DNA of 63,891 nt, filler included, from Chrysochromulina tobinii (lineage: Eukaryota), in assembly GCA_001275005.1 (NCBI GenBank). It is 8 parts of 8 records of this genome, joined end to end, with 100 filler letters (N's around TTAATTAATTAA, not from the genome) between each part and the next. Parts side by side here need not be neighbours in the genome. Positions count along the whole stretch, not along the records: positions 40,435 to 50,244 come from JWZX01000787.1; 7 more parts are not named here. The stretch is one strand, 5' to 3'. The notes below the pieces were generated by a model. It was given only the letters and a program-made list of their open reading frames with translations, searched no databases and was not told the DNA's origin. The first letter of the stretch is position 1. Every line of letters starts with the position of its first letter. Shown in pieces: positions 11,116 through 56,400 of the stretch. The position numbers and the translations under genes were made by a program.

Positions 11116-11291
11116 CGTTCCAAGCAGCGTGCGTGCGTGGGTGTCGCGGCAAGACGCGCAGAAGTAACTCGACTTTTTGCCCGAGGTGCTCGCCTTTACT
11201 GTAGAACATGCGAAATGTTATTTTTTCCGTGGGCGCGGACCACCAACTCAAGGCGGTAGCGCGGTGTTTGTTCACAGACGCGCACTGCACC

Positions 11292-13880
11292 ATGCGGACG
11301 CATATGCTTCTAGCTCTGCTCACATTGCGTGCCGCCTCGGGCTTCTACCTGCCTGGCGTGGCGCCTCGCGAGTACCTGGATGGAGAGAAGGTCGAGGTTA
11401 AGGTCAACAAGCTCACATCTACCGTCACGCAGGTGCGCTCTGCCCACGGCCAGCGCCTTCGCCATGGCCGGCGCTCTGGCCTGCTATCGACGCGTACGCC
11501 TGCACCCGCCCTGAACAGCTGCCGTACGACTACTATAAGCTTGCCTTTTGCAAGCCCAAGGAGCTCATCAACGCGGTCGAGAACCTCGGCGAGGTCCTTC
11601 ACGGCTCGGTGATCCAGAACTCGCCGTATCAGCTCTTTGCGCAGAAGCAAGACTTCAAGGTGCTCTGCAAACAGGATCTGGACGCGAAGCAGGTGGCCGA
11701 GTTTGGGAAGCGGATTGGCGAGGAGTACCGCGTGCAGCTCATCATGGACAACCTGCCCGCGGCCACGCGCATGATCTCCGAGCTGCCCAATGGAAAGACG
11801 GTCTACATGTACGACCGTGGCTACAGGTTGGGCTTCATGGGAGCCAAGGAGTTTCCTGGCACGATCCCAAAGACGCCGTACCTGAACAACCACCTGCGCT
11901 TCATCATCAAGTACCACAAGGACGCCAAGTTCGAAGGCGCGCGCCTCGTCGGCTTCGAGGTCGAGGCCTTCTCCGTGAAGCACACCTACAAAGGCAAGTG
12001 GGGCGTGGACGCGAGCCTCACCTCGGTGCCTCTGTCGCCGGACCTGCCACCCCAGCCGATCGTGGAGGCGGGCGAGTACATCTTCACGTACGACGTGCAG
12101 TGGGAGGAGTCACCTATCCGGTGCGACTCGCGATGATCGCGCCTAGACCTCCCCACATGGGTGATTGCCTCTCTCATTCTCTCATTGCATGCTGATTGCG
12201 TGGGGTAGGAGTCACTCGTCCGGTGCGCCTGATTGCCTCTTCTCATTGCATGCTGATTGCGTCGGATTGCGCTGCATGCAGGTGGGCTTCGCGCTGGGAC
12301 CTCTACCTCTACATGGGTGACGACCAGATCCACTGGTTTTCGATCCTCAACTCGCTCGCCATCGTGCTGCTGCTCACGGGTACGCGCTTCGGCTCGGATG
12401 GCCTCTGATGGCCTCAGATAGGTTCTGAGTGGCTCTGAGTGGCTCTGAGTGGCTCTGAGTGGCTCTGAGTGGCTCTGAGTGGCTCTGAGTGGCTCTGAGT
12501 GCGTTTCCATTTTCCGCCCTCATCAGGCATCGTGGCGATGATCATGATGCGCACGCTGCGGCGCGACCTCAACCGTTACAACTCGGTCGAGGAGAAGGAG
12601 GAGTTGGCAGACGAGAGTGGCTGGAAGCTCGTACATGGCGATGTGCTGCGCCCGCCGCCGCTGCCCCTGCTTCTCTCGTCGTCGGTGGGGACTGGCATGC
12701 AATTGCTCTTTATGGCCATCATCTCGATCTTCTGCGCGATGCTCGGTTTCCTCTCTCCCGCCAACCGCGGCGGCCTTCTCACTGCGACGCTGCTGCTCTT
12801 CGTGTTGATGGGCGTGCCTGCGGGCTACTACGGCTCGCTCCTCTACAAGTCCATCAAGGGCTCGCAGTGGAAGTCGTTGACCGCTTCGACCGCCCTCCTG
12901 TACCCAGGCGTCATCTTCCTCCTCTTCTTCTGCCTCAACCTCTTCATATGGGGCTGCGGCTCGTCTGCCGCTGTGCCCTTCACCACCATGCTTGCCCTGA
13001 TCTGCATGTGGTTCTGCATCTCCGTCCCCCTCGTCTTTCTCGGCGCGTTCTTCGGCTTCCAGACGACCCTGCCCGAGCCGCCGGTGCGCACACGATCGAG
13101 ATCGCACGCCAAGGACTGCCGCATGCAAGTGCTCACCACGGCGCCATCTCTTCCCCACAGGTGCGCACGAACGAGATCGCACGCCATGTACCGCTGCAGG
13201 CGTGGTACATGGGGTTGCCGTGCACGATGGCGGTGGGCGGCATCTTGCCGTTCGGCGCCGTGTTCATTGAGCTCTTCTTCATCATGAGCTCTGTCTGGCT
13301 GCAGCGCTTCTACTACGTCTTCGGCTTCCTCGCGCTTGTGATCTTCATCCTGCTGCTCACGTGCGCCGAGATCTCGATAGTCCTCTGCTACTTCCAGCTC
13401 TGCAACGAGGATTATCACTGGTGGTGGCGCTCCTTCCTAAACTCGGGCGCGGCAGGCGGCTACTTGCTTGGCTACTCCGCCATCTACTTCCATACACAGC
13501 TTGACATGGTCGGTTTCACACCGACGCTCCTCTACTTTGGGTGTGAACGCCCCCCGTGTGCTGTGGAAGATTGCCTTTGGGTCTCCCCCGCGTGCCTCTC
13601 TGATAGCCCCGATCACCTCCCTCCTCAGGCACACGTTGATTGCCACTGATTACCACTGATTGCCACTGATTGCCACTGAGTGCCACTGATTGCACCCCTC
13701 CTCAGGCACATGTTGATTGCCACTGATTCCACTGATTGCCACTGATTGCCACGGATTGCACCCCTCCTCAGGTACATGTTGATCGCCGCCATCATCTTCG
13801 CGCTGATGACGGGTACAGTTGGTTTCATGGCCGCGTGGTGGTTCGTGTGGAAGATCTTCTCGGCCGTTAAGGTCGACTAG
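11292..13880 (+). CDS. TM9SF: Transmembrane 9 superfamily (EMP70/nonaspanin) protein
   Basis: Signal peptide then [61 protein letters not shown]-terminal KVD; introns 11433-11518, 12122-12282, 12380-12526, 13084-13160, 13541-13771. Confidence 0.95.
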
Positions 13881-15195
13881 GACCGACACGAGCCCAAGCA
13901 GAGGCAGCTCTCTCGATTAGGAAACCGGAGGCCCTCTCCCGCTCGCAATAGCCTCGCCTAGCGCCGTGAGGCCTTGCGTGGAGCGTGCATGCAAGTGCTC
14001 ACCCCGGCGCCTCTCCTAGCGCCGTGAGGCCTTGCGTGGAGCGTCCCGCGGGGCGCTGTCTGTGTTGCGGTGTCGCGGCTTGCATCTCGGAGATCGCACC
14101 TCGGAGATCGCATCTCGTGTGCCCCAATCGTCGGAGATCGCATCTCGTGCGCCCCAGTCGAGCCGCCGTCGTGTATCACACCGCGGCGCCTGCAACGTAC
14201 TCACTGTGCTCTCACACAGCGACGCTCACCCCCACGCCCCACAGTGCCTCGCCGTCGACCGGGCGCGCGACGCACTGACCACGCTGTGTCCTACTAATGC
14301 TGACACTGCGCACCACTCGGCGGGCGTGTCGGCTGTCGCGACGGTGTCGCGCCGGTGTTCGGTGGAATACGATCCGATCGCAACGTCCCCGGGCGCTCGC
14401 GGAGACGCGTGGGGCACGGGCGGGAGCCGGTCCGCGACTACTTAGTTCGTCATCATAGTATTAGACTCTTGACGATGTGACCACATAACCTCGAGGGCGC
14501 GGGCGAGGTGCTGGGGACAGACAGACGAGAGTGAGTGTCCGGTCTTAGATGAAACAGAGACGGCGGAAACGGAGCGTCGGAGCCCCAGCCCGGGCCGAGC
14601 CCGAGGCACAGACCGCCTCCGGATGGCGCTCGGCGGGCCGGACCCGCGGCGCTCGCCGGATAGCCGTTATGATTACTAAGCGACACCGTCTCCGCAGCGG
14701 TCTGACACTGTGCGCTCCTATGACACGCCGCACGAGGTCGAGGACCGGACAACGTTTCAAACAAGCATGTTTCAAGCATGTGGGTGACTGAGTGCGCGTG
14801 CCCGCGCAACCGGAACCGCTCTCCTGCTTCCATTATGGCTGTTCCTGCTACGCCACTTCAAGCACGATTGTACCATTGTACGATTGTAGTTTGTACGAAC
14901 GGGCGCAGAGCGTACTCCGAAGTTCCACGTTCCACCGTCGGTGCGGAGTATATGGACTTTGGATGGACCGTGTGGCAGTTGCGCGCCGTCGTGGACAGCC
15001 GGACACGGCGATCCGCCGGCGCGCCGACCCGAGCGCGCGCCGTCGTGGACAGCCGGACACGGCGATCCGCCGGCGCGCCTCGACCCGAGCGCGGTCTACC
15101 CTCGGCCCTCTAGAGATGAGGTGTCGCACTTCAGTGCCTCTGTGCTCCGCAGAGTGATGCATGGCGTGCCATAGGATTGTCGACGTGCCCGCGCT

Positions 15196-15933
15196 CTAGT
15201 CCCGTCCATCCGTGCCAAAGTAGCGGTCGCCAAAATCGCCCAACCCCGGCACGATGTAACTTTTGCTGTTGAGAATTGGGTCGATGGCCCCAGTGACGAT
15301 CTTGACCTGCGGGTACTTGTTGTGTATGGCGGCAATGCCCTCGCGCACGCACACGATGTTCACAAAGATGATATTTTCTGGGCGCACCCCTTTTTCAACC
15401 AAGCACTCGATAGCCTTGACCGCTGAGCCTCCCGTCGCGAGCATCGGGTCGAGGAGCAGCACCTGGCGCATGGCGACATCCGGCGGCAGCTTGGAGTACA
15501 TGAGCGTCGGCAGCGCAGTCTCCTCGTCGCGCTGGATGAGGATCTTGCCCACGGCCACAGATGGCATCATCACTCGCACCTCGCCCAGCATGCAGTCGGC
15601 CGCACGTAGGATGGAGACCGCACACAGGGACGACTCGGCGGGCAGGCGCATGCCCTCGTACGGGCCGCATGGCGTTTCGACGAGGACGGCCTTCGACGGT
15701 AGCAACGCCATCGCCTCTTCGATGAGCAGGTGCGTGAGCCTATTCGAGGCAATCACAAACTGTGAGCGCGGCGCCGTCTTGTCACGCATGAGCGTCTGCA
15801 GCGAGCGCGTGAGCGGTGTGTCCTTGAGCACCGTGACGTGGTGAAGGTTTTCGCACATGGAGCTGGCCGACGCGAAGGCGCCCGCGGCCGTCGCCGCGGC
15901 ACCGCCCGCTGCAAGCATCAGCCGACGCTTCAT
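15196..15933 (-). CDS. UPRT: Uracil phosphoribosyltransferase
   Basis: VSILRAA, GKILIQRDEET, LLLDPMLATGGS (PRPP site), YIVPGLGDFGDRYFGT. Confidence 0.95.
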   Translation of the reverse strand: MKRRLMLAAGGAAATAAGAFASASSMCENLHHVTVLKDTPLTRSLQTLMRDKTAPRSQFVIASNRLTHLLIEEAMALLPSKAVLVETPCGPYEGMRLPAESSLCAVSILRAADCMLGEVRVMMPSVAVGKILIQRDEETALPTLMYSKLPPDVAMRQVLLLDPMLATGGSAVKAIECLVEKGVRPENIIFVNIVCVREGIAAIHNKYPQVKIVTGAIDPILNSKSYIVPGLGDFGDRYFGTDGRD

Positions 15934-16080
15934 GGCCGTCGGGCCCCGAACTTCGCGAGTTTGGTCATTGGTTGGTCTTGAGTGGAGAGTGGAAGCCCAC
16001 CCCGTCCCGTCCCTAGGTCTCCATGTTCTGTACATGAGCTACGAAATTGGACAACTGTTCCCCGCCGTATCGGGCGGCGC

Positions 16081-16744
16081 ATGGCCACGCTGAGCGCGGC
16101 CGACCTTGGGCGCCGCGTCCAGGTCACTACCTCGGATGGCGAGGCGAGCGAGGGCACCGTCTTCGCTGTCGAGGATGGCGTCGTCGTGCTCGAGTCGTTC
16201 TGCTGGCCCAGCAATCCAGAGATCACCCGTGCAAACTACAGCGTGCTGACGGCGGCCTCGATCACAAAGGTTGCTGAGGTGGCAGCGGTGCCGTCGGGCG
16301 CCGCCGCCCAGGAGCGTTCGTTGCCGGCCGTGGATTCAGCGTATCTGCAGGCACGCGAGGCACGGGCCGTCACGCGCGCCGAAGAGGAGGCCACCAAAAT
16401 CAACCCGAAGGCGACGGCGCGTTTCCAGGCTGTCTTCGACATGCTGTCGAAGACCATGCCTTGCACGTGGGGCACCAACCCGCAAGATGGCGGCCCTGCC
16501 ATCATGATCCTCGAGGCGGTGAGCAGCCCTCGAGATGTGTGCAGCGCTCCCCCTTGTCGAAGCATGGCCTGACTGGGTGGTGTTGTGTGCGCCGTCGCAG
16601 GTCATCATCACCGCCGCTCTCAACCCCGACAAGCTAGTCGCGAAAGCGGGGGAGGAGCGCCTGAAGGAGCGCGTCCGCAAGGTGCTCTCCGGCGTCATCG
16701 CCAAGCTCGAGAGCGATCCTCGGATGAAGTCATCCATTGGCTAA
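16081..16744 (+). CDS. LSM12-like protein (N-terminal LSm fold + anticodon-binding AD domain), intron 16519-16600
   Basis: GRRVQVTTSDGEASEGTVFA; ARFQAVFDMLSKTMPCTW; ERVRKVL; head-to-head with UPRT across ~150 bp. Confidence 0.75.
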
Positions 16745-16935
16745 GGAGACACCTGTGAGTGGATGCGAAAGCGATATAGCGGATGGGGCGTCGCGGGTTC
16801 GTTCGCTCGTCTCGTCTGCAGCCCGCTAACAACGGCTGATACGTGAGTATTTTTAACGATGAACGAACTTCATGACGCAGCCCCACACGTCTCGCTTACA
16901 CATGCGTTCGCACCTAAGCGTGTCCCCGAGGTCTT

Positions 16936-17262
16936 TCATTCACCGCGCTTGCCCTTGATGAAGTCGCTGCGACGCTGGCGAGACTTGTTGATGAGATTGA
17001 CCGACGAGGGCAGCTGGGCTTCGTCGCCGATAACGTCGCCGAGGGAAGCGTTGAGCAGCAGCGTGAGCACCAAGAGCGCGAGGGCGATGCCCACCACGAT
17101 CCGGTCGTCTGGAAGCGCGTTTGCGGCAGCCGCGGCGGACGCGTCGGCTGCGAAGGCGGCGGGCTGCAGCGCAAAGGCTGCCGTACCCGAGGCTGCGGCG
17201 AAGCGGGCCACACTCGCCGGTGACAGCAGCGAGGGCCGCAGAAGCTGTGGGATGCCGAGCAT
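16936..17262 (-). CDS. Small single-TM hypothetical protein, possibly organelle-targeted
   Basis: Ala-rich N-region, hydrophobic IVVGIALALLVLTLLLNASL, short C-tail; start uncertain. Confidence 0.45.
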   Translation of the reverse strand: MLGIPQLLRPSLLSPASVARFAAASGTAAFALQPAAFAADASAAAAANALPDDRIVVGIALALLVLTLLLNASLGDVIGDEAQLPSSVNLINKSRQRRSDFIKGKRGE

Positions 17263-17461
17263 CGGAGAAAAAAAAGATCGGGACCGCTGGGGTGTGAACC
17301 AAATCGCACATTTTTGCACAAGACGCAGCGACCGAGGCCGTCGCAAGCGGATGCCGCCTTGCTTTTTCGCCAAATGTTCTTCTGTGAACTCTTGATCGCG
17401 GCTGTGCCGAAGCTTTGCTGTGCTTTGCAAGTGTTCTGCCCTCGCCGCCTGACCGCGCGCG

Positions 17462-20400
17462 ATGTCGGGCTCGCATCTCAGCCGCGACTTCTTCGAGCTT
17501 ATGTGCGCGCACACCCCAGCTCCGGCCAGTGCACGGCCAGGCACTCAACGCGAGGCGATGAAGTAACGGGACGCACAGACAGCGGGTGCGCTCACGCGCA
17601 CCAATGGGAGTGTCCTCACGCGCGCGCCATCGCCTGCTGCTATGTGCGCAGCAAGAGCATCGGCGAGTGCAAGTCGAAGCAGGAAGAGGATAAGATCTTG
17701 GCCTCGGAGGTGTCCACGCTCAAGCAAATCTTCACCACGCAGCTCACTGATAAGAAGTTGAAGGAGGCGCTCATGCGGGTCATGTATGCAGAGATGCTCG
17801 GCCACCACGCCGATTTCGGCCACATCCACGCGGTGAACATGACGCAAAAGACGAATCTCGTCTCCAAGCGCGTTGGCTACATGGCGAGTGCTGCCTGCCT
17901 CCACCCGGGCCATGAGCTGGTCACGCTCGCCGTCAACACCATGCGACGCGACGTCGCGTCGTCGAACCACGTCGAGGTGTGCGCGGCGCTGATCGCGATC
18001 CCGAAGCTGGTGAGCAAGGAGTTCCTCCCCGCGCTGCTCCAGCCGGTCCTCGCCCTCCTCGACCATGCCATGGAGGCCATTCGTAAGAAGGCCGTGATGG
18101 TGCTGCACAAGTTCTACACCATTGAGCCCGAGAGTATGGCGAGTCACACGGATAAGCTGCGGCGCGCGCTGTGCGACAAGGACCCGGCGGTGATGGGCGC
18201 GGCGCTGTACATCTTGCATGCGATGGCCGAGCAGACTCCCGCGCATCACAAGGACCTTGTGCCCTCGTACGTTTCGATCCTCAAGCAGATCACCGAGCAT
18301 CGGCTGCCCTCCACGTTTGATTACCATCGCGTGCCAGCTCCATGGATCCAGATCAAGCTGCTCAAGCTGCTGGCCCTGTTGGGCACGAACGACCAACGCG
18401 CGAGCGAGGGCATGTACGAGGTGCTCAATGACGTGATGCGCCGCGCCGACACGGGCATCAACATCGGATACGCGGTCATCTACGACTGCGTGCGCACGGT
18501 CACAACGATCTATCCGAATATCCCACTGCTCGAGGCGGCGGCGGGCCACATCGCCCGCTTCGTCCAATCGGAGAACCACAATCTCAAGTATCTCGGGATC
18601 AAGGCGCTCGCCCAGATTGTGCAGGTACGGACGAACCCACGCCCTAATCCAAATTAGGCAGGCCATGCGCCCGAGCTGCCCGGCCTGCAGCACGTGCTCA
18701 ACACGGCGCGCACCATCGCCTCTCTCGCCTCTCTCTCTCCTCTCCCCACAGGTCAACCAAAAGTACGCGCTCGACCACCAGATGGTCGTCGTCGAGTGCC
18801 TCGAGGACCCTGACGAAACTCTCAAGCGGAAGACCCTCGACCTGCTCTTCGCGATGACGAACGCGTCCAACATCATCTTCGTGGCCGACACACTCCTCGG
18901 CCACCTGCGCTCGACAACGGACCAAACCTTCCGAGGCGGCCTCGTCGACCGCATCACGCAACTCGCCGAGCGGTCAGCGCAACTCCCTACAGCGCACTGC
19001 CGAGCAACTCCCCACAGCGCACTCCCGAGCGGCGCCCACCATGCGAGCGCTCACCACGGCGCCCGGCTCTCCGCGCCTCGGCCCGCTCTCAAGCGTGCGA
19101 GCGCTCATCACGGCGCGCATTCCTCCCCTGCCCCCCTCCCCTGCCCCCCAGGTACGCGCCCGACAACACGTGGTACATTCGGACCATGAACGCGGTCTTC
19201 GAGCTCGGCGGCGAGTTAGTCCGGCCCGACATCGCCCACAACTTGATGCGCCTGATCGCCGAGGGCTCCGGCGAGGATGAGGCCGCTGACATGGCCATGC
19301 GCAAGTACGCGGCGTCGCAGTACTATGAGCTGCTCGAGAAGCCAGTGCTGCCCGACAACCTCGTGCAGGTGCTCTGCTGGGTGCTGGGTGAATATGGTTA
19401 CCTGGTCGACGGCACCCAGGTCCTCGACATAGCGACGCGCTTGTGCGGCGTCATCAAGCGCCAGTTGACGCACGTCTCGACCCGCAATTGGGTCTTGGGC
19501 GCGCTCGTGAAGCTCGTCGCCCAGCTTGGCCAGGCCCCTTCCCAGGTGACCGAGCTCGCCCAAAAGTACTCTCGGTCCGCGGACGTGACTCTCGCAAAGT
19601 ACGCGAACGAGCTGCTCGTATTCAGGGAGCACATGGACGTGATGAAGGCGGTGCTGCCCGTGGACGCGTCGTGTGAGGACCTCGAGACCGATCGCTCGCT
19701 TTCCTTCCTCAACGGCTATGTGCAGGTGACGAAGCCCTGATGGCCTCTCTTGATTGCCTCTGATTGCAGGTGACGAGACCCTGCTGGCCTCTCTTGATTG
19801 CCTCTGATAGATTGCAGGTGACGAGACCCTGCTGGCCTCTCTTGATTGCCTGCTTCCCCCTTCTTCTCAGTCTCTCCCCTTGTTTGGCTCACGATCACTG
19901 ATGACCACTGATGACCACTGATGACCACTGATGATCACTGATTGCTTCCCTCATCAGTCTCTCCCCCTTGTTTGGCTCACAGGCTGCCGTCGCCAACGGC
20001 GCCCAGCCCTACCTCAAGCGCGGTCAGCGCCCGGCAGACCTCGAGGCTGCGGCAAAGCGGGCCGCGGAGATCGCCGCCAAGCAGCCGGCCCAGCCGACGA
20101 TGCGCTTCGAGGAGTATGAGCGAGCACAGCTGCCCGTGATGTCGGCGCCACCAGCGGCGCCGGAGCCATCGGCGCCTGCCGTCGAAGAGACGCCACCACC
20201 CCTCTCGAGCGGCCTCAACACCTCAGGCGTCAAGCAAATGTGGGGCGCCGAGGGCTTCATGGGCGACAAGCCCGCGCCCGCGCCCACCCCCGCACAGGTC
20301 TTCACACCGGCTGGGGCCCCTCCGGCGGGGGGGTACCCCGGGAGCGCGCCGCAGGCCCCCCCTCGCCCCGCCGCGCCACCGGAGAAGAGTGCCGAACAGA

Positions 20401-20497
20401 TCGCAAAGGAGAAGAAGATGGCGGCACTCTTCGGTGGCATCCAGGCCGCCGCGCCCGCGCCCGCGCCGGCGCCCGCGCCCGCGCCCGCGCCGGCGCC
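17462..20497 (+). CDS. AP4E1: AP-4 adaptor complex epsilon subunit (3'-truncated by contig end)
   Basis: MSGSHLSRDFFEL at 17462 spliced (intron 17503-17651) to IKSIGECKSKQEED; YHRVPAPWIQIKLL; NHNLKYLGI; EDPDETLKRKTLDLL; LPVDASCED. Confidence 0.92.
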
Positions 20498-20597
20498 NNN
20501 NNNNNNNNNNNNNNNNNNNNNNNNNNNNNNNNNNNNNNNNNTTAATTAATTAANNNNNNNNNNNNNNNNNNNNNNNNNNNNNNNNNNNNNNNNNNNN
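20498..20597. other. Artificial contig linker (N44-TTAATTAATTAA-N44); identical linkers at 26021-26120, 34181-34280, 38294-38393, 40335-40434, 50245-50344, 62664-62763
   Basis: Six-frame-stop linker embedded in Ns, 100 nt each. Confidence 0.98.
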
Positions 20598-23500
20598 GTT
20601 CCGCAGCGCCCCCGCCGCGTTCTCCTTTTGGCCATCCGTGCCGCTCTGCACCAGCGTCACGAGCGGCGCGATCGCGCCAGCCTGCGCGATCAAGACCTGG
20701 TTCTCGGCATTTTTGAACGCGAGGTTCCGCAGCGCCCCCGCCGCGTGCTCCTTTTGGCCAGCCGTGCCGCTCTGCACCAGTGTCACGAGCGGCGCGATCG
20801 CGCCAGCCTGCGCGATCAAGACCTTGTTCTCATCGTTGCCCGCGAGGTTCCCCAGCGTCCCCGCCGCCTGCTCCTTTTGGCCATCCGTGCCGCTCTGCAC
20901 CAGCGTCACGAGCGGCGCGATGGCGCCAGCCTGCACAATCAAGACTTCATTCTCGGCGTTGATCGCGAGGTTCGCCAGCGCATCCGCCGCGTACTCCTTT
21001 TGGCCATCCGTGCCGCTCTGCACCAGCGTCACGAGCGGCGCGATCGCGCCAGCCTGCACAATCAAGACTTCGTTCTCATCGTTGCACGCGAGGTTCCGCA
21101 GCGCATCCGCCGCGTACTCCTTTTGGCCAGCCGTGCCGCTCTGCACCAGCGTCACGAGCGGCGCGATCGCGCCAGCCTGCGCGATCAAGACCTGATTCTC
21201 ATCGTTGCACGCGAGGATCGCCAGCGCACCCGCCGCATACTCCTTTTGGCCAGCCGTGCCGCTCTGCACCAGCGTCACGAGCGGCGCGATGGCGCCTGCC
21301 TGCGCGATCAAGACCTGGTTCTCGGCGTTGTTGGCCGCGAGGTTCCACAGCGCATCCGCCGCGTACTCCTTTTGGCCAGCCGTGCCGCTCTGCACCAGCG
21401 TCACGAGCGGCGAGATCGCGCCAGCCTGCGCGATCAAGACCTGGTTCTCATCGTTGCCCGCGAGGCTCGCCAGCGCACCCGCCGCGTGCTCCTTTTGGCC
21501 AGCCGTGCCGCTCTGCACCAGTGTCACGAGCGGCGCGATCGCGCCAGCCTGCGCGATCAAGACCTTGTTCTCGGTGTTGTTGGCCGCGAAGTTCCACAGC
21601 GCCCCCGCCGCCTGCTCCTTTTGGCCAGCCGTGCCGCTCTGCAACAACGTCACAAGCGGCGCAGTCGCGCCAGCGTGCGCAATCAAGACCTGGTTCTCGG
21701 CGTTGATCGCGAGGTTCCGCAGCGCCGCCGCTGCCTGCTCCTTTTGGCCATCCGTGCCGCTCTGCACCAGCGTCACGAGCGGCGCGATCGCGCCAGCCTG
21801 CGCGATCAAGACCTGGTACTCGGCGTTGGCCGCGAGGTTCCACAGCGCCCCCGCCGCCCGCTCCTTTTGGCCAGCCGTGCCGCTCTGCACCAGCGTCACG
21901 AGCGGCGCGATCGCGCCAGCCTGCGCGATCAAGACCTTGTTCTCGGCGATCATCGCGAGCCTCCGCAGCGCCCCCGCCGCCTGCTCCTTTTGGCCATCCG
22001 TGCCGCTCTGCACCAGCGTCACGAGCGGCGAGATCGCGCCAGCCTGCGCGATCAAGACCTTGTTCTCGGCATTGGCCGCGAGGTTCCAGAGCGTTGCCGC
22101 CGCCAGCTCCTTTTGGCCATCCGTGCCGCTCTGCACCAGTGTCGCGAGCGGCGCGATCGCGCCAGCCTGCGCGATCAAGACCTTGTTCTCGGCGATCATC
22201 GCGAGCCTCCGCAGCGCCCCCGCCGCCTGTTCCTTTTGGCCATCCGTGCCGCTCTGCACCAGCGTCACGAGGGGCGAGATCGCGCCCGCCCGCGCGATCA
22301 AGACCTGGTACTCGGCGTTGATCGCGAGGTTCGCCAGCGCCCCCGCCGCGTACTCCTTTTGGCCATCCGTGCCGCTCTGCACCAGCGTCACGAGCAGCGC
22401 GATCGCGCCAGCCTGCGCGATCGAGACCTGGTTCTCGGCGTTGAGCGCGAGGTTCCCCAGCGCCCCCGCCGCCTGCTCCTTTTGGCCGGCCGTGCCGCTC
22501 TGCAACAACGTCACAAGCGGCGCAATCGCGCCAGCCTGCGCGATCACGACCTTGTTCTCGGCGTTCATCGCGAGCCTCCGCAGCGCCTTCGCCGCCTGTT
22601 CCTTCTGGCCATCCGTGCCGCTCTGCACCAGCGTCACAAGCGGCGCGATCGCGCCTGCCTGCGCGATCAAGACCTGGTTCTCAACATAGGCCGCGAGGTT
22701 CCCCAGCGTTGCCGCCGCCTGCTCCTTTTGGCCATCCGTGCCGCTCTGCACCAGCGTCACGAGGGGCGCGATCGCGCCAGCCTGCGCGATCAAGACCTTA
22801 TTCTCGGCGTTGACCGCGAGGTTCCACAGCGTCCCCGCCGCGTTCTCCTTTTGGACACCCGTGCCGCTCTGCACCAGCGTCACGAGGGGCGAGATGGCGC
22901 CAGCCTGCGCGATCAAGACCTTGTTCTCGGCGTTTGTCGCGAGGTTCCGCAGCGCCCCCGCCGCCTGCTCCTTTTGGCCATCCGTGCCGCTCTGCACCAG
23001 CGTCACAAGCGGCGCGATCGCGCCAGCCTGCACAATCAAGACCTTGTTCTCGGCGTTTGTTGCGAGGCTCCGCAGCGCACGCGCCGCCTCCGCCCCGGCC
23101 GCTGGGTCTTGGGCCGTGAGCATCGCCACGAGCGGCACGATTCCGCCCGCCCTCGCAATCGCCACCCGCGACTCATTGTCGCGCATGTCAGCCAGCGCTC
23201 CGGCCGCATCGGCGCTGCTGTTGCGCACCTGCTGGACCAGCCGCTGCAGCCGCTCGTCCTTCGAGAGCGCCGGCGCATCTGCGCCCGTGCCCACGCCCGC
23301 ACCACCACGCGATGGCATCGTTGGCATCTCTGGCCAAGTAGATCTTCCACCATCAATGGCCATCATTCGGCGTAAGTCGCGATCTCGCGCAATCTCCGCG
23401 GCATCTCGTGTGGTGTAAAAGAGCAGCGTATCCCGCATCTCCTCCACCTCGATCGTCTGGACAAACTGCGATGCGTGTCTGTCCTCAACCGCATGAGCTT

Positions 23501-25914
23501 CCGCGGCTGCTTCGCCCTGGTCGAAGCGAAACGAACGCACCCTCGGCGGCTCCAGACGAATAGCAACCATTTCGCCACGGATCCCGTGCGCGGGCAGCCC
23601 GCCAATGTCCGACGGGTACGCCGAGAACGCGCGCATCCCAAGACGGTTGATCGGCGACGTCTGATCCGCCCCATCAAAGTACACGTACAGATCCGGGTAC
23701 GTGGCACGCGCTGTGTAGGCTTTGAGCCCGAGGACACGTCGCCAGCCTCGGCTTGCCTGCAGGATGGCCATCTCCTGCACCTCTGTGGCCGCTGGGAAGG
23801 GCTCGGGAGCCACCGACACCGGGATCGCATCGCGAGCAGCCTCGAGTGGGCAAGGGCTAATCTGGAGGGCCTTCCCCCTTCTCGACGAGGCGGGAGGCGG
23901 CGTGGAAAGCACTTGCATGTTGGCGGGCTTGATCAAGATGGGGGCGCCGTCGCGCATGCCTGGCTTCTGCCGGTCGACCAGCTGCACCTCCCATCGCTCG
24001 ACACCGCCCGTCATATTCCGACGGTCCACAACGCCCATGCGCCCATTCAGCTCTGGCCGTGACGCGAGGCCGCACAGAGTGACACGCGCACCCACCCAAG
24101 GGGCGATGGCGCTGGCGGCATCCGCCTTTCGTGCCGAAGGCGGCCGGATGGCTGTTGTCGCCCCCTCCGCCTGTGCTGCGCTCTCAATGGGGATCCCTTG
24201 CGCAGCCGCGAGGCCATACAGCCGCCGCGCCTCAGCCTCGTTCTTTGGTCCGCCTAGTTCTTGCTCGTGCATGGCCCCAAGACTGTACTGTGCCTCAGCA
24301 AGCCCTTGCGCGGCCGCGAGGCCATACAGCCGCCGCGCCTCAACCTCGTCCTTTTGTCCGCCATGCCCTTGCTCGTACATGGCCCCAAGAATTTGCTGTG
24401 CATCAGCATGCCCCTGCGCGGCCGCGAGGCCAAACAGCCGCCGCGCCTCTAGCAAATCCTGCGGTCCGCCCTGCCCGTGCGCGTGCATGATGCCGAGGTT
24501 GCACTGCGCTTTAGCATTCCCCTGCGCAGCCGCGAGGCCATACAGCCGCCGCGCCTCCGGCAAGTCTTGCGGTCCGCCCTGCCCGTGCGTGTACATGATC
24601 GCGAGGTTGTGCTGCGCTTTAGCATGCCCCTGCGCGGCTGCGAGGCCAAACAGCCGCCGCGCCTCAACCTCGTCCTTGGTTCCGCCACGCCCTTCATCGT
24701 GCATGAGTCCGAGGTTGTACTGCGCGTCAGCATCCCCCTGTGCGGCCGCGAGGCCATACAGCCGCTGCGCCTCTGCCTCGTCCTTTGGTCCGCATCGCCC
24801 GTGCTCGTGCATGATTCCGAGGTTGAACTGCGCGTCAGCATGCCCTTGCGCAGCCGCGAGGCCATACAGCCGCCGCGCCTCTAGCAAGTCTTGCGGTCCG
24901 CCCTGCCCTTCGCGGTGCATGACCCCGAGGTTGTACTGCGCTTTAGCATCCCCCTGCGCAGCCGCGAGGCCATACAGCCGCCGCGCCTCTAGCAAATCCT
25001 GCGGTCCGCCTAGTCCTTGCTCGTGCATGATTCCGAGGTTTTGCTGTGCCTCAGCATGCCCTTGCGCAGCCGCGAGGCCATACAGCCGCCGCGCCTCTAG
25101 CAAATCCTGCGGTCCGCCCTGCCCGTGCGTGTACATGATCCCGAGGTTGTGCTGCGAATCAGGATCCCCCTGCATAGCTGCGAGGCCAAACAGCCGCCGC
25201 GCCTCAACCTCGTCCTTGGTTCCGCCACGCCCTTCATCGTGCATGAGTCCGAGGTTGAACTGCGCGTCAGCATTCCCCTGTGCAGCCGCGAGGCCATAAA
25301 GCCGCCGCGCCTCTGCCTCGTCCTTTGGTCCGCGTCGCCCGTGCTCGTGCATGATTCCGAGGTAATGCTGTGCCTCAGCAAGCCCTTGCGCAGCCGCAAG
25401 GCCATATAGCCGCCGCGCCTCAGCCTCCGTTCCTTTCGGTCCCGCCAATCCCTTTCTCGTGCATGATTCCGAGATTGTGCTGAGCCCCAGCATACCCTTG
25501 CGCAGCCGCAAGGCGAAACAGCCGCCGCGCCTCAACCTCGTCCTTTGGTCCGCCTAGCCCTTGCAGGAACATGACCCCGAGGTCGTACTGAGCCTCAGCA
25601 TACCCTTGCGCAGCCAAGGTGCGAAGCTGCTGCCGCTCCGCCTCCGCCTTGTCCCTTGGTATGCCACGTCCTTGCGAGTGCTTGGAGGCTCCATCAGAGG
25701 ATCGATCCGACGAAGGCGACGGTTTCGGTGCAGACATCGCTGGCGATGGCTTCGGCGCCATATGCAGCGACGTGGGCTGCACGGCGAGCATCTCGCCGTT
25801 CTCGCAGCGCACCTTCCACCGACCGCGGGATTCGACCCATTCCACCACGTCGGCAACGCGACCGTTGAGCTCGGGCCGAGCCACCAGTCCCTCCAGCACG
25901 ACGCGAGCACCCAC
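20598..25914 (-). CDS. Giant repeat protein: SH3-like domain, ~13 Sel1 repeats, second SH3-like domain, linker domain, >=21 armadillo repeats (3'-truncated; apparent frameshift at ~25425-25445)
   Basis: 36-aa AQxNLGxMxxxGxGGxxDxxEARRLYGLAAAQG units; 41-aa AGAIAPLVTLVQSGTDGQKEQAAGALxNLA units; GARVxLxGLxxRPELNG twice. Confidence 0.9.
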
Positions 25915-46695: not shown

Positions 46696-49158
46696 TCACT
46701 TCTGGCTACTCTCTAAACTGTTACTATCCGGATACATGGCCCCCTTCATGAGCGAAAGCCCGTCAATAACGCCAAAGTCGGCATCGGTGGCCGCGCGCAC
46801 GCTCGCGAGATCGACGCCAGATGCAATCTCGCGCAGCGTGAGGCCGGAGCCGTCGGGTGCGACGTCGAAGACGCCGAGTTCGGTGATGAGCATCGACACG
46901 CAGCGTGCGCCGGTGAGGGGCAACGTGCAGTGGCGGAGCACCTTCGAACGCCCTCTCTTGTCGCAGTGCTCCATCGTGACGATCACCTTGGCGGGAGAGG
47001 AGACGAGATCCATCGCGCCGCCCATGCCTTTGACGAGCTTGCCAGGGATAAGGTAGTTGGCCATGTCGCCGTTAGCAGCGACCTGCGCCCGAGCCGAGGG
47101 TGGTCGCAATCAGAGGCGCAATCTGAGGCGCAATCAGAGTCGCAATCAGAGGCGCAATCAGAGGCGCAATCAGACCTGCGCCCGAGCCGAGGGTGGTGAC
47201 GTCGCAGGAGCAATCAGTCTCAATCAGAGGCGCAATCAGAGGCGCAATCAGAGGCGCAATCAGACCTGCATCGAGCCGAGGATGGTCACGTCGCAGTGGC
47301 AATCAGTCGCAATCAGAGGCGCAATCAGCGGCGCAATCAGACCTGCATCGAGCCGAGGATGGTCACGTCGCAGGAGCAATCAGTCGCAATCAGAGGCGCA
47401 ATCAGAGGCGCAATCATGGGCTATCAGAGTCCATCAAGCCTGAGCCCGAGCTGAGGTTGGGCCTCATCAGGCGCAATCAGTCGCAATCAGAGGCGCAATC
47501 AGAGGCGCAATCAGACCTGCATCGAGCCGAGGATGGTCACGTCGCAGTGGCCGCCGCGGATCATTCCAAAAGAGGCATCCGCGCTGAAGTACGAAGCGCC
47601 GGGCAGTGCAGTCACCTGAGTAGGGACGTACTCCGATACACTCAGCCGCAATCAGCCGCAATCAGCCGCAATCAGTCGCACTCAGCCACCATCAGATGCA
47701 ATCAGCCGCCATCAGAGGCACTCAGCTCACCGTCTGCTTGCCCGCGTTGATCAGATCGGCATCCTCTTGCCCCCTTGTGGGGAAAGGGCCGACGCCGAGC
47801 ATCCCGTTCTCGCTCTGCAACGTGATCGAGACGCCTTCGGGAATGAAGTTGCTCACCTGATGAGGGAAGCCATCATAGGTCATCAGAGGTCATCGGAGGT
47901 CATCGGAGGTCATCAGAGGTCATCAGAGGTCATCAGAGGTCATCAGAGGTCATCAGAGGTCATCAGAGGTCATCAGGCGCTCACGAGGGTCGGCAGCCCG
48001 ATGCCCAGGTTGACGTAATCTCCGTCAGCGAGCTCGAGCGCCGCGCGCCGAGCAATCCGCTCTCGGTCCGGCGTCATGGCGTCCCCTTCGGTCCGTTCAC
48101 CGGCGAGGGTGAGGCGCTCGATACAACGCTCGGACGGTCCCTGCACAATCCGCTCGACGAAGAGGCGCCATCAGCGGGCGCAATCAGATGGCGTAATCAG
48201 CCGGCGCAATCAGCCGGCGCCATCAGCGGCGCCATCAGCGGGCGCCATCAGAGGGCGCAATCAGTGAGGTGCAATCAGAGGGCGCCATCACCTGCACGAT
48301 CCGGTCGACGAAGATCCCCGGCGTGTGGATGTCGTTTGGGTCGAGCGTCCCCGCGGGCACGAGCTCCTCCACCTGCCTCGAGGAGGCAATTAGTGGCAAT
48401 CAGAGGCAATTAGTGGCAATCAGAGGCAATTAGAGGCAATCAGGAGCGGGCACGAGCTCCTCCACCTCCGCGATGGTGATCTTGCCCGCCGTCGCCACCG
48501 CCGGGTTGTGATTACGCGAGGTCATGCGATAGATAAGGTTGCCCTCGGTGTCGCCCTTCCACGCGCGCACGAGGGCAAAGTCGCCAGGCAGCGCCCGCTC
48601 CATGATGTACTCCTTACCCTCGAAGAGCTGCGACGCGCGTGGCGTCGAGCCCTTGATGACCTTGCCCGAGCCATCGGATGCGTATCGAACTGGCATGTTG
48701 CCGTGATGAACGAGGGTTCCGACACCGGTGGCGGTGAAGAAGGCCGGGATGCCCGCGCCGGCCGCGCGCATCCGCTCGGCCAGCGTGCCCATCGGCACCA
48801 GCTCGACATCGATCTCGCCGCTCAGGAATTGCTTCTCGAAGAGAGCGTTCTCGCCCACGTACGAGCCGATCATCTTGGAGATCTGCTTGCCCTGGAAGAG
48901 CAGGCCGAGGCCACGCTCGCTCGTGCCCACATTGGAGCTCACCACCGTCAGGTCGCCCACACCCTTCTTTTGCAGCGCAGCGATCAGGTTCTCAGGCACG
49001 CCCGTAAGGCCGAAGCCGCCGACGAGCAGCGTCGCGCCCGACGGCACGTCGGCGACGGCATCGGCGGCCGACGCGAAGACCTTGCCGCCGACCGGCACCG
49101 TCGACGAGCGATGCCGTCGCGCTGCGGCCAACGTCGTCATCAAGGCGCGACGCACCAT
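46696..49158 (-). CDS. OXCT1: Succinyl-CoA:3-oxoacid CoA transferase (fused A+B), mitochondrial-type presequence, 5 introns
   Basis: [52 protein letters not shown] (catalytic Glu), [10 protein letters not shown]. Confidence 0.95.
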
Positions 49159-50443: not shown

Positions 50444-53400
50444 ATGGTGAAGCCCCCCTTGTCGATGAAGACAAAGCTCGACGTGGCCTCCAAGGCTCCC
50501 AAGCTCTTCATCCCGGGGAAAGCTTTCCCCGTGCCTTCAACAGCAGCGCCCGTGCCCGTGCCAACACCGGCATCAGCACCTTCCCGATCCGCTGGAGGGG
50601 CCGCCGTCACCGCACTCGGGCTCGCCGCCAACGCGGAGAAGGCGGCAGCGGAGAAGGCGGTAGTCATGGATGTGGCACCTGGCCGTGGATGGGACTACAT
50701 CCAAGGTAAGGGTGCAGCTGTGCTTCGACACCTCGAGACAGGTCATGCTGTTGGTCTTTCGGATGGCTCAAATGGCTATGTACATCTTAAGCAGGGTGAT
50801 ACAGCGCCTGAACTGGTCGAGTTTCCCCTCGGCACTCAACCACAGGATTGGAGTGCCGAAGAGCGCAGATTGCTTGGCATTCTCATGACTTCGCCAGGCG
50901 CTCATCCGCTGAGCACATCGTTGGGCTGCACCACCACGTTTGGTCGTTGGAAGTTCACTATCGAGGACAGTGGCCTTGTCATGCTACATAATTCGTCTCA
51001 AGGTGAGTCACCGGAGAGAACGCGCTGTCTCGCAGAGCATGGATACGAACGACCACGGAGCGCTCACCACCTAACGGAAATTGTGGCCAAACATGCAGCT
51101 TTGCAGGGGAAGACCGCCGGCACCAACGCGCCGGCGCTCGCGCTCGCGATCGCGACTCCGAGCCTCTTCGGAGGCGCACCGGCGCCAGCTGCCGGCCTTT
51201 TCAGAAGCACACCGGCCGCCGGCCTTTTCAGAAGCACACCGGCGCCAGCTGCCGGCCTTTTCAGAAGCACAACGGCGCCAGCTGCCGGGTTTTTCGTAGC
51301 CCCGGCGCCAGCTGCCGGCCTTTTCGGAGGCGCACCGGCGCCGGCTGTCAACCCCTTCAACGCGCCAGCCGCCGGCCTTTTCGGCGGCGCACCGGCGCCA
51401 GCCGCCGGCCTTTTCGGAGGCGCACCGGCGCCAGCCGCCGGCCCTTTCGGAGGCGCGCAGGCGCCAGCTGCCGGCCTTTTCGTAGCCCCGGCGCCAGCCG
51501 CCGGCCTTTTCGGAGGCGCACCGGCGCCAGCTGCCGGCCTTTTCGGAGGCGCACCAGCGCCAGCCGCCGGCCTTTTCGGCGGCGCACCGGCGCCAGCTGC
51601 CGGCCTTTTCAGAAGTACAACGGCGCCAGCTGCCGGGGTTTTCGTAGCCCCGGCGCCAGCTGCCGGCCTTTTCGGAGGCGCACCGGCGCCGGCTGTCAAC
51701 CCCTTCAACGCGCCAGCCGCCGGCCTCTTCGGAGGCGCACCGGCGCCAGCTGCCGGCCTTTTCGGAGGCGCACCGGCGCCAGCTGTCAACCCCTTCAACG
51801 CGCCAGCCGCCGGCCTTTTCGGCGGCGCACCGGCGCCAGCCGCCGGCCATTTCGGAGGCGCACCGGCGCCAGCCGCCGGCCCTTTCGGAGGCGCACAGGC
51901 GCCAGCTGCCGGGTTTTTCGTAGCCCCGGCGCCAGCCGCCGGCCTTTTCGGAGGCGCACCGGCGCCAGCTGCCGGCCTTTTCGGAGGCGCACCAGCGCCA
52001 GCTGCCGGCCTTTTCGGCGGCGCACCGGCGCCAGCTGCCGGCCTTTTCAGGAGCACACCGGTGCCAGCTGCCGGGTTTTTCGTAGCCCCGGCGCCAGCTG
52101 CCGGCCTTTTCGGAGGCGCACCGGCGCCAGCTGTCAACCCCTTCAATGCGCCAGCCGCCAGCCTCTTCGGAGGCGCACCGGCGCCAGCCGCCGGCCTTTT
52201 CGGAGGCGCACCGGCGCCAGCTGCCGGCCTCTTCGGAGGCGCACCGGCGCCAGCTGCCGGCCTTTTCGGAGGCGCACCGGCGCCAGGTGCCGGTTTTTTC
52301 GTAGCCCCGGCGCCAGCTGCCGGCCTTTTCGGAGGCGCACCAGCGCCAGCTGCCGGCCTTTTCGGAGGCGCACCGGCGCCAGCCGCCGGCCTTTTTGGAG
52401 GCGCACCGGCGCCAGCTGTCAACCCCTTCAACGCGCCAGCTGCCGGCCTCTTCGGAGGCGCACCGGAGCCAGCTGTCAACCCCTTCAACGCGCCAGGATC
52501 TCCGCCGACCTTCACCTTTGGAAGTGCCTCGATAACATTTGGCGCGCCCGCGCCCGCGCCCGCTGTCGGCTTCGGCGACTTTGGCGGTGGTGCCGCTGGC
52601 TTCGGCGATGGTGCCGCCGGCTTTGGCGGTGGTGCCGCCGGCGTTAGCGGGACGGCCGCGGCCGGCACGGGCGACCCACCGTATAAGCCGGTGCAGGAGA
52701 GGGAGCAAGTCGCGGGCGCGCCCGGCCAAGTGCAGGTATACCAGTACTGCTCGATCACCAAGATGCCTCAGTACGGAGCCAAATCGTTGGAGGAGCTCCG
52801 GTTCGAGGACTACGCCAAGGGTAATACGGGTGCAGTCGTACTTCGGGTGGAGGGCGCGGGTGCTTACGACCATGTCCAAGGTGAGTACAAGGTGGACGTC
52901 GCCGCTGGCCCTTGCGCTGCTGAGTGTGCAGATAAGGCGACTCGTGTTTGCGTCGAGTTTGATGGCGGGAAAGGAAGGAACAACTACATCGCTTCGACTG
53001 AGCTCAATCTGACAAGGCTCGCCGGCGGGTACCGGATGGGCGACCGCGTGACGACTCGCGTCGTTTGTGGTAAAGTCGCGGTTGGGGAGGCAGGCACGGT
53101 GATTGGCCCTTGCAGCTCTCAGGTGGACGATAAGGCGACTCGTGTTTGCGTCGAGTTTGATGGCGGGAAAGGACGGTTGAACTACATCGCTTCGACTGAA
53201 CTCCGTCTGACAAGGCTCGCCGGCGGGTACCGGAGGGGCGACCGCGTGACAGCTGGCTTGAACATGTACCCAGTCGCGGTTGGGGACGCAGGCACGGTGA
53301 TTGGCCCTTGCACTGCTGAGTGTGCAGATCAGGCGAATCGTGTCTGCGTCGAGTTTGATGGTGGAAAGGGACGGATCAACTGCCCTGCTTCGATTCTGAT

Positions 53401-56400
53401 GGAGCCGTTGCCACCTCGATTAAGCCAAGCCTTGACAGACAATCATGTGATGTTGAATCAGCTCGACCTGGGCGTGATCGATTGGATGGTAGCCTCGTAC
53501 AAGAAATGCGAATCCGATCAGGAGCGTGATTTTGTGCTCAAGATTATTCTGCAGACCCTCGTCCATGGGTGGCCCCAGTCTTCCAAGCAGGCGGACTGTG
53601 GACGTTACAAGTACTGGAACAGACTGGCACTCGTGCCGAGGAGTCGGCAAGCATTGCAAGCAGCGCTACGGGAGTACTCCGTTAACTACAAACGAGAGTT
53701 ACAAACGAGAGTCTCCGATTACACAGAATTCCTTCATAGTGCGGATAACCAATTCTACCAACAGGTGGAAGCGTGGGCACGGGAGGATGCCATCCTACGC
53801 GAGGCCAAGGAGAAGCAACGGCAGGCGCTCGAGGAGAAGAAGCAGGCCGAAATCAAGGAGCGGGAGGAACGCAGGAAGGCGGTTGAAGCGAGGCAGGCGA
53901 AAGGGAATGTTTCGTCAAGGCTCGAGGACGCTAACCCGGGGAAGAAGAAACCCTGGAGTGTGGATGAATTGGGTTCGGAGCTCTTCCGCCTTGCATTCGA
54001 GGGCGGAGATACGCGACAGCTCGAGCCCCTTCTCAACAAGGTCAGCAACCTGAGCCTCAAGAAGCGGACCAAGGTGCGCGAGTGGGTCGACGATTCGGGT
54101 GCGACGCCGCTGTATGCGGCCGCGTACAACGGCAACGTCGACGCACTCAAGCTGCTCCTACGTGCGCAGTTTGCGCCCGACATGTTCCACACCAAAGATG
54201 GCGTGACGCCCCTCTACGCGGCGTGTGACCGTGGTCATCTGGCGACGGTGAAGGAGCTCGTCAAGGGGCGTGCGGACCCGATGCTCAGCATGCGGGACAC
54301 CGCCTTCACCCCCTTGACCATTGCCGAGACCATCGCCGAGACCAAGGGGACGAAGAGTGTGCACCAGTCGATCGTGGAGCTGCTGCGTGCACACGTGAAC
54401 TCGCCGCAGGTGCTTACGGCAGCGCCGACCAAAAGCTCCGCTGTGCCGACCATGAAGACCCTCACGAAGCTTTTCGAGGACGAGGGTGAGGAGGGGGTCA
54501 AGAACAAGAAGCAACTCGAGGAACTGAAGTTGCAACTCGAGCAAGTCGGGAAGAACAAGAAGCAACTCGAGCAACTCGGGAAGAACAAGTTTGAGAAACA
54601 AAGGGCTTGGGGAGGAGGAGGAGTGATCGAGGAGGAGGGGGAGGAGGGGGAGGAGGGGGAGGAAGCGGAGGGCAGGAAGGAGGGGGAGAACAGGGAGGAC
54701 AGGGAGGACAGAGAGGAGGGGGAGGGCAGGGAGGAGGGTGGTTTCTTCACAAGCGTCGAAACACGTTCGAATGGAAAGGAGGGGGAGGAGCAGCAGCCAG
54801 AGGAGAGCCACTTTCATGTGGAGCAGCAGAGCATCGGGGAGGCAGAGCGTGAGGTGGAGCGAGTCGCTCATCGTCCGGCCTTGAGCTCGGGATTGAGCTC
54901 GGGATTGAGCTCAGCCACGCTCGACAGTGCGACCGTGCGTCCGGCCGAGTCCTTCGACTCCCTCATCACGGCCCTTCACTCTAGTGCCTCAAGCTCTGAT
55001 GTGTTGCGTGCTGCTCTGAAGCAGCTCGACTGTGTCGACGAGGACAGCCTCGATGACGCTCGCAAGAGGCGCTGGCGTGAGGCTCTGAGTTGGGGCCAAG
55101 AGCACCTCGACCACCTGACGATGAAGGAGGCCACCTCGCTCTACGCCCTGGAATGCGAGCTGCCTGTCGACCTTGGACCGAAAAGCTGCTTCTCGGCCCA
55201 CACCATTCTCGTGGTGGACAATAGCGCCTCGATGCGGCAGGTCGATGTGCACACGGGCACCGCTGAGGGCGACATCTCACGGACAGAGGCGGCTAAGCGG
55301 CTACTCACGACACACTTCCTCAAGACGCAGATCGATGCGGGCGCGCAGGCGCACGAGCGCGTGTCGCTGATCAAGATCCAGAGGGGTTCGACGAGGCCCC
55401 CGTTTGCCCTCTTCCCGCTCGATCATAGCCTCGCTGACCGCATCCTGCGCGCCATCGACGAGCCTCGAGGGCATGGCGACTACCTGCCCGCACTCGAGCT
55501 GCTCGCCAAGCTGGTGGAGCTCACAGCCCCTTTCATGAAGGAGAGCGCCAAGACGTCAATCCTCTTCTTCTCCGACGGCAAGCCCTCCGATCACATCGAT
55601 GAGCGCGTGCTGCCCGCGCACCTACGGCAGGCGCTGTCGGAGCTGCACAAGGCAGTGCAGCGGAGCGGCAGTTACATCGAGCAGTTCTCGCTCCTTGGCT
55701 TTGGCGAGGCCGATGAGGCGATGCTGCGCATGATGGCAGAGGCGTACCCCGCGCGCGTGGCTGAGTACCGCGCCGTGAGCGGGCCAGAGGGGTACAAGGC
55801 GCTTGAGACGGCCGTGACCACCTTTGCCTCGTCTGTGGCGGTCTCTCGCCTCTCGTCGGTCTCAGTGACCTTGGACAAGAAGCAGCGTGCGTTGCGTCGC
55901 GTCGACCGCTCCCTGGGCGAGCGCTTCTACCGTTACGAGGACTGCAAGGTGCTGCTCCCGCCAGAGAGGCTAATTCACCTCCATGATTGCCTCTGATATA
56001 CCCGAACGACTCTGATAGCCTCTGATGACCTCTGGTGGCCTATTGATCGCATCCCTCATCAGGTGCTGCTCCCGCCAGAGAGGCTCGGGGACTTTAACTC
56101 GGATCTGCTCAGGCTGCCTGAAGGGCACACCCTTCTGATCTCGTCCAAGCTACTTGGCCACGGCGGCGAGCGCAACGCGTTCGTAGCCTTCTTCCTGTCC
56201 AAGAACAGCTTCACCACTGAAGATGAGGAGTGGGTGGTCAAGGAGAGTCGACACGAGCGCGCGGAGCACGAAGATGACGACTTTCATCGCAAGGCGCTCG
56301 TCACGCAGCATGCGGCGCACATGCTCGCGAAGCGCTTCAACGACGATGCCGAGGCTCTCGAGATAGACGGCCTTCCGAGCGTCTCGTACATGAACCACTG

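Follow-up and report, generated by a model that had tools for sequence, protein, structure and literature searches.

Exon-edge duplications of either polarity supply splice sites to two introns of a Chrysochromulina tobinii SCOT gene

The question of where new spliceosomal introns originate is an old one, and existing surveys point to transposons. In introners, one splice site is carried by the element and the other is recruited at the target, in either polarity, and the families have defined ends with short, fixed duplications of 3–9 bp (PMC9860276; PMC12130899; bioRxiv 10.1101/2020.10.14.339549). Introners are known from marine Chrysochromulina MAGs, Emiliania and Pavlovales, one Emiliania family being noted for its 10-bp terminal direct repeats (PMC9860276; PMC12130899; bioRxiv 10.1101/2020.10.14.339549); those of the marine Chrysochromulina MAGs have 4-bp duplications (PMC9860276), and not all introners have terminal inverted repeats (PMC9860276). 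The supplement of a 2025 survey lists zero families for C. tobinii (PMC12130899). Two further routes are tandem genomic duplication of an AGGT-containing segment (PMC3443670) and gain through break repair, in which direct repeats flank the new introns, young introns later acquire internal repeats (61% in that system) and parallel gains at one site are common. Direct repeats of 4–30 bp at or near intron borders have also been reported across taxa (PMC11782384), in a survey whose abstract describes no presence/absence test. The C. tobin genome is reported to contain about one intron per gene (PMC4580454). In the literature searched, which took in few subscription papers, we found no paper describing long exon-edge copies in Chrysochromulina. 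Intronic repeats of 10–11 bp occur in Emiliania; the same searches returned no account of them.

Here, we describe, in a species with no listed introner family, frequent young exon-edge duplications of both polarities, together with allelic differences at existing junctions and close relatives that apparently differ in intron presence. The window, that is, the whole stretch of DNA analysed, comprises 63,891 nt of eight joined parts of the C. tobinii assembly GCA_001275005.1. It contains a SCOT gene on the minus strand (46696–49158), identified by homology to a Chrysochromulina parva gene model (P0272; 99% identity to the spliced model) and to P0001 and P0003 (82–83%, gap-free). The gene has six exons, and the spliced model of 513 aa is of the fused eukaryotic type (PF01144). 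All five of its introns are GT–AG and phase 0, and are packed with 10–13-nt CTGAT-type repeats.

Intron 1 (48373–48465, minus strand; 93 nt, phase 0) interrupts a GAG|GTG site and carries in-frame stops. An earlier note on this DNA had claimed that it opens with a perfect 20-nt copy of the downstream exon, and that its donor therefore derives from the duplication; the exact match is indeed present, and is followed by a 71-nt CTGATT/CTAATT array and the terminal AG. The repeat also takes in the preceding AG, giving a perfect duplicated unit of 22 nt: the first copy (48446–48467, minus strand) consists of the exonic AG and the first 20 nt of the intron, and the second (48353–48374, minus strand) of the acceptor AG and the first 20 nt of exon 2. 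Both GT and AG consequently lie inside the repeat, and from local base composition, the chance of the anchored match is ~5e-11. The copy is non-coding, with frameshifted or substituted alleles in L075, P0264, P0266, P0268, P0270 and P0271, and it is drifting freely among alleles (L075, P0264 and P0271).

Intron 2 (48141–48291, minus strand; 151 nt, phase 0), at a CAG|G site, has the opposite, acceptor-type arrangement: a 127-nt CTGATGGCGCC-type array precedes a copy of the upstream exon end. The last 23 nt of the intron repeat that exon end with two mismatches, much as the earlier note had proposed, such that the acceptor is supplied by the duplication, and inclusion of the next G extends the unit to 24 nt. 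The first copy (48291–48314, minus strand) joins the exon 2 end to the donor G, and the second (48140–48163, minus strand) the intron's last 23 nt to the opening base of exon 3. The repeat contains the AG and, from the donor GT, the G, whereas the T comes from the filler; the anchored match has a chance of ~2e-9 from local base composition. Both mismatches fall at third codon positions, and both are also seen in L075. Relative to AGGT tandem duplication as described in PMC3443670, intron 1 is alike in that its unit holds AG|GT, with the donor and the acceptor AG in the repeat, and intron 2 fits in part only, its donor requiring filler; both differ in being mostly non-exonic filler, namely, 71 of 93 nt and 127 of 151 nt.

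Within the intron 2 copy, at 48141–48154, an in-frame AG has arisen through one of the mismatches, 12 nt upstream of the acceptor. In P0272, the C. parva model, an AG inside this copy is taken and four residues are gained as a result, for which RNA run X11 gives no support, illustrating how exon copies can mislead annotation; use of the acceptor 12 nt upstream is unseen in X11, where the contig ends fit the canonical site. There is also a hint of intron 2 retention, the contig depth being 3.9, against 6–7 beside it.

Introns 1 and 2 are real, and the RNA contigs are consistent with splicing exactly at the predicted sites. The joints were derived from contig ends and from a bubble in the 31-mer graph, the joint table being crowded by repeats and not listing them directly. 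Contig 6 of X11 spans 48117–48320 and is the intron-retaining arm of the bubble, whose branch points coincide with the donor and acceptor predicted for intron 2; contig 3 of the same run starts at 48146, as the intron 2 join predicts. Contig 7 runs from exon 1 into the 20-nt copy and ends in 8 unaligned letters, the length expected of the spliced intron 1 path, which, by that length, it appears to follow. In both introns, then, a splice site has been recruited from the duplicated target, and the spliced mRNA is unaltered. An assembly artefact is ruled out: contigs of DNA run X3 run unbroken over the donor of intron 1 and through all of intron 2, the X11 contigs agree, L065 and L069 match the window at 99.9–100% (these two may be from the same source as the window), and both copies are present in L075, a diverged allele with 98.8% exon identity and all five SCOT introns.

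The remaining SCOT introns present a more varied picture. Intron 3 (47857–47984, minus strand; 128 nt), across which X11 contig 3 joins, shares its first 6 nt with the next exon start, and in L075, it holds an additional internal 34-nt copy of the next exon. Intron 4 (47616–47730, minus strand; 115 nt), a CTGA repeat array with boundaries from protein homology, has just 4 nt in common with the next exon, which is at chance level. Intron 5 (47083–47516, minus strand; 434 nt), likewise bounded by protein homology, ends in a decayed copy of the upstream exon end, the score of which (10) is marginal, being matched by 2 of 702 null pairs; it also contains internal copies, of which one of 31 nt and one of 35 nt are perfect; L075 lacks these two. 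At ~1913–1973 of L075, flanked by the same short direct repeats, a T-rich filler of 61 nt substitutes for the final repeat block of intron 5, although this may be low-quality assembly.

How common such copies are was assessed for 27 introns in the window: 12 from RNA joints, the 5 of SCOT and 10 inferred from reading frame. RNA contigs of four runs on 8300–20440 gave 15 joints, from which the 12 with intron ends were kept and three repeat-copy joins were dropped. As a null, introns and exons were paired mismatched (702 pairs per side), and the maximum scores were 8 on the donor side and 10 on the acceptor side, compared with 20 and 17 for introns 1 and 2, respectively; 2 of the 1404 mismatched pairs reached or exceeded the threshold. 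An exon-edge copy was found in 13 of the 27 introns, three of which had been found through their modules; excluding these leaves 10 of 24 (3 of 12 in the RNA set, 3 of 5 in SCOT and 4 of 7 in a peptide-transporter gene). This recurrence, and the exact abutment of the copies on the exon edge, distinguish them from the border repeats of PMC11782384, as far as its abstract describes them. Terminal copies, of 20–28 nt, occur in six introns; the earlier note had suggested weighing the donor type against the acceptor type, and within the window, both are represented, by four (48373, 13084, 55949 and 2128) and two (48141 and 47083), respectively. Internal copies abutting an exon edge, of 13–43 nt, occur in nine of the 27 introns, with six cases of the downstream exon and four of the upstream exon. 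Since internal copies outnumber terminal ones, most events appear to have taken place at existing junctions.

Three donor-type introns lie outside SCOT. That at 55949–56062 (plus strand), in another gene and with boundaries from reading frame, has a perfect copy of AG plus 23 nt. The intron at 13084–13160 (plus strand), for which the RNA joint is seen in three of the four runs, has a gapped copy of 26–28 nt and a different acceptor module, of GTGCTCACCACGG type, with the CTGAT array absent. At 2128–2210 (minus strand), there is a likely GC–AG intron, predicted from reading frame, with a 21-nt copy of the next exon providing its GC donor. Elsewhere, positions 30–107 of the metagenome locus L111, from a distant relative placed with an Isochrysis model, form a donor-type SCOT intron with a 16-nt exon copy (one mismatch) and no CTGAT array.

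The symmetry of the two SCOT introns had been taken in the earlier note as the mark of an insertion that generates target-site duplications. That part stands insofar as splice sites are drawn from duplicated exon in both polarities (four donor-type and two acceptor-type cases among the 27 introns); in the sense of a transposon, it does not, given the absence of inverted or common ends, the uniform orientation, lengths of ~13–43 nt and the nesting of copies. A classic introner of the MITE-like DNA-transposon kind, in which a fixed target-site duplication donates one splice site and the other is recruited, would resemble known introners, which recruit a splice site from the duplication in either polarity (PMC9860276; bioRxiv 2020.10.14.339549). 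Against this, reported duplications are 3–9 bp and fixed per family, whereas those here are of 22 and 24 nt for introns 1 and 2 and vary widely overall. Moreover, a search of seven fillers for terminal inverted repeats found 0 leading matches and 2–6 matches in 15 in all seven, and no ends are common to the fillers of introns 1 and 2. The repeat units are sense-oriented in both introns, which excludes one element in two orientations; taken together, the lack of inverted repeats and common ends and the shared orientation indicate that the two polarities do not represent a single element flipped. The filler-end analysis thus largely refutes a transposon origin for introns 1 and 2, and we regard it as very improbable.

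In the window and the short loci, the fillers do have repeat units in common and, in some cases, 3' modules: the CCCTCATCAG-type module recurs at 13 sites in the window and the GTGCTCACCACGG-type at nine matches, and there are at least two unrelated filler types. The CTGAT/CTAAT units resemble the CTRAY branch-point consensus, a likeness that would explain the splicing of such fillers. No donor intron for the fillers was identified within the window and the short loci. Searches of viral and prokaryote collections with the repeat and module motifs gave 0, 5, 1 and 0 matches; the five prokaryote matches show no repeat enrichment and look like chance. A contig of the viral collection (L126, 4495–4554) ends in a GTGCTCACCACGG acceptor module beside another repeat-filled duplication, and is probably host DNA.

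Comparison with relatives shows that neither position is conserved among algae. A metagenome scan with a clade-specific motif returned at least 120 stretches, nine of the 120 listed being SCOT; four intronless SCOT loci (L021, L026, L047 and L093) are possible transcripts and were left out of the genomic evidence. L101 and L111 lack introns 1 and 2, and were taken as genomic because introns are present elsewhere in them. Three proteins with 97% identity (P0273, P0143 and P0274), which form the sister group to the window and C. parva (support 100/99), read through the intron 1 site and then enter the start of intron 2; P0273 is very likely genomic, because it is recorded on 20 contigs, the longest of 15.1 kb, and the absence of intron 1 from this lineage was judged from called proteins. 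P0277/P0145 (81%, contig of 10.9 kb) read through both sites, as do the P0013, P0015, P0148, P0150, P0154 and P0164 groups, in which homology is lost at the downstream introns as expected. In all, apparently genomic sequence from at least seven further algal lineages reads through both sites, and L101, L111 and P0277 are empty at both.

This pattern of read-through confines intron 2 to a close clade and makes intron 1 the apparently younger of the two: we infer that intron 1, which looks like a recent insertion, was probably acquired once the P0273 lineage had separated, and that the gain of intron 2 came before that. The age order agrees with the state of the copies, that of intron 1 being perfect and that of intron 2 having two mismatches in common with L075. 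One protein, P0144 (81%, 944-bp contig), complicates the account in that it departs from homology just where intron 1 lies, and its tail is possibly a CTGAT array. A search with P0144 returned no relative clarifying this tail, and lake runs X17 and X19 gave just short, divergent matches and no close relative. If the tail is an intron, two gains are as parsimonious as one gain and one loss, in a region of the tree that has moderate support only.

The earlier note had named ancient, shared positions for both introns as the finding that would overturn its proposal, and for the pair this is not what is seen; at site 1, however, there is probably an intron in human OXCT1, and maybe one in P0144. 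In the human gene, an exon boundary at c.732/733 probably places an intron at the same codon boundary as intron 1. The same literature searches found no exon table for human OXCT1. A reported 516-nt exonic circRNA (PMC7236241), a boundary at c.1173 (PMC10292751) and an alignment with the pig structure fit such a boundary, without proving it. Parallel gain is the likelier reading of the coincidence: GAG|GTG is a textbook proto-splice site, and parallel intron gains are reported to be common in Daphnia (PMC4202315).

These same observations bear on the possibility that both introns are older and that the copies are secondary, arising when duplications spanned the junctions of existing repeat-rich introns and the old donor or acceptor was then lost, whether to a microhomology deletion or to recombination, the partner being cDNA or an intronless allele. 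Such duplications evidently occur: L075 and the window differ by them in introns 3 and 5, and the intron at 7620–8223 holds six internal copies. Because the same copies lie inside existing introns and differ between alleles, a duplication alone is no proof of birth by insertion, and the possible intron in P0144 and the probable human coincidence point in the same direction. The three mismatches of ungapped terminal copies in the window, and the one in L111, are all at third codon positions; four of four is what a diverged intronless template would give, in a sample too small for a test. However, an extra exact deletion would be required, of which the old splice sites have left no trace, as would an independent loss in the sister lineage, and the lineages that read through both sites, numbering at least seven, would remain to be accommodated. 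C. tobin cells, moreover, are described as haploid (PMC4580454). We consider the older-intron scenario unlikely.

The reading that we favour, with a probability of roughly 0.55, is that introns 1 and 2 were made by DNA repair with template switching, in which a module was copied from another intron. A growing strand would leave the gene, copy a CTGAT-repeat and splice-site module from another intron, and rejoin 20–24 bases before its point of departure, thereby producing the target duplication. For the donor type, copying would pass a G|GT or AG|GT site, jump into the repeats of another intron, continue to the 3' AG of that intron and return at a short AG|G match; for the acceptor type, the jump would be into a donor and its repeats, with return upstream in the exon. 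At an intronless proto-splice site, the outcome would be a new, cleanly spliced intron with its other splice site in the duplicate, whereas at an existing junction, it would be an internal exon copy, possibly amplified later by unequal exchange. The likeness to break-repair gain extends to the flanking direct repeats and to the internal copies; the differences are that the repeats here are 20–40 nt and supply the splice sites, and that the filler consists of an intron module that recurs in this genome.

Several features argue for template switching. The inserts are flanked by a direct repeat of the target at sites that are empty in relatives. Inside the intron at 6222–6350 and in intron 3 of L075, the new acceptors are unlike the older one of the respective intron; simple tandem duplication is therefore not the source of the filler, and an outside template is indicated. 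Additionally, downstream of a stop codon at 13957–14044 (plus strand), there is an unspliced insertion, crossed without a gap by RNA contigs of all four runs, in which a 28-nt acceptor-type module lies between two 30-nt copies opening with CCTAG; the module ends at an AG belonging to the duplicated target, and does so without selection for splicing, albeit in a single case.

An RNA template would leave the same footprints as a DNA template, and the insertion might be of retro type, making target duplications of variable length through nick-primed reverse transcription of an excised intron or pre-mRNA, or through a short non-autonomous element. The spread of duplication lengths (13–43 nt), the sense orientation and the recurring 3' modules (CCCTCATCAG and GTGCTCACCACGG) with variable 5' ends are all compatible with this. 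Of the traits expected of a non-LTR or SINE-type insertion (variable-length duplication, a fixed 3' end with a tail and a truncated 5' end), the donor-type cases have the variable duplication and a recurring 3' module. In the acceptor-type cases, the geometry is turned around, the 5' donor end being fixed and the 3' end variable, which is the reverse of ordinary 3'-primed retroposition; there is no poly(A) tail, the fillers of introns 1 and 2 lack common ends, and an antisense repeat insertion with a 16–22-nt duplication exists (8324–8423). A retro-type origin seems improbable to us.

More broadly, we offer tentatively, as something that may be so, the generalization that in this alga introns breed introns without a transposon, repair, possibly templated by excised-intron RNA, pasting branch-point repeats and one splice site from existing introns. 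Equally tentative is the view that such repair would duplicate 20–40 bases of the target in either polarity, create new introns at G|GT-like sites and go on rebuilding old splice sites. Under this reading, introner surveys would miss such inserts, because they have no fixed ends. Intron gain by repair or from an RNA template can be tested directly across whole genomes, since two related genomes and many lake metagenomes are public.

Other duplications in the window deserve mention. The antisense array at 8324–8423 (plus strand) sits in the predicted last coding exon of a peptide-transporter-like gene, its 16–22-nt duplication being 78 nt apart and in frame. In the intron at 7132–7428 (plus strand), a decayed upstream exon end and downstream exon start adjoin, forming copies of the spliced junction; either an acceptor-type event and then a donor-type event or a cDNA template would fit this. 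At 7620–8223 (plus strand), the six internal copies reproduce the next exon's first 37 nt; each follows a CAG and is in turn followed by repeats. Two RNA-verified introns differ again: that at 9806–10097 (minus strand) has copies of the two flanking exons in its interior, the downstream one without a preceding AG, and that at 19726–19982 (plus strand) has purely intronic duplications, with the donor region present three times and the acceptor region twice. Pairs of 44 N around a 12-nt linker, at 20498–20597 and six similar places, are scaffold gaps, not biology. Finally, the coding-type tandem arrays at 20598–23089, 24195–25615 and 51162–52496, with periods of 123, 108 and 33 nt, respectively, look like ordinary protein repeats.
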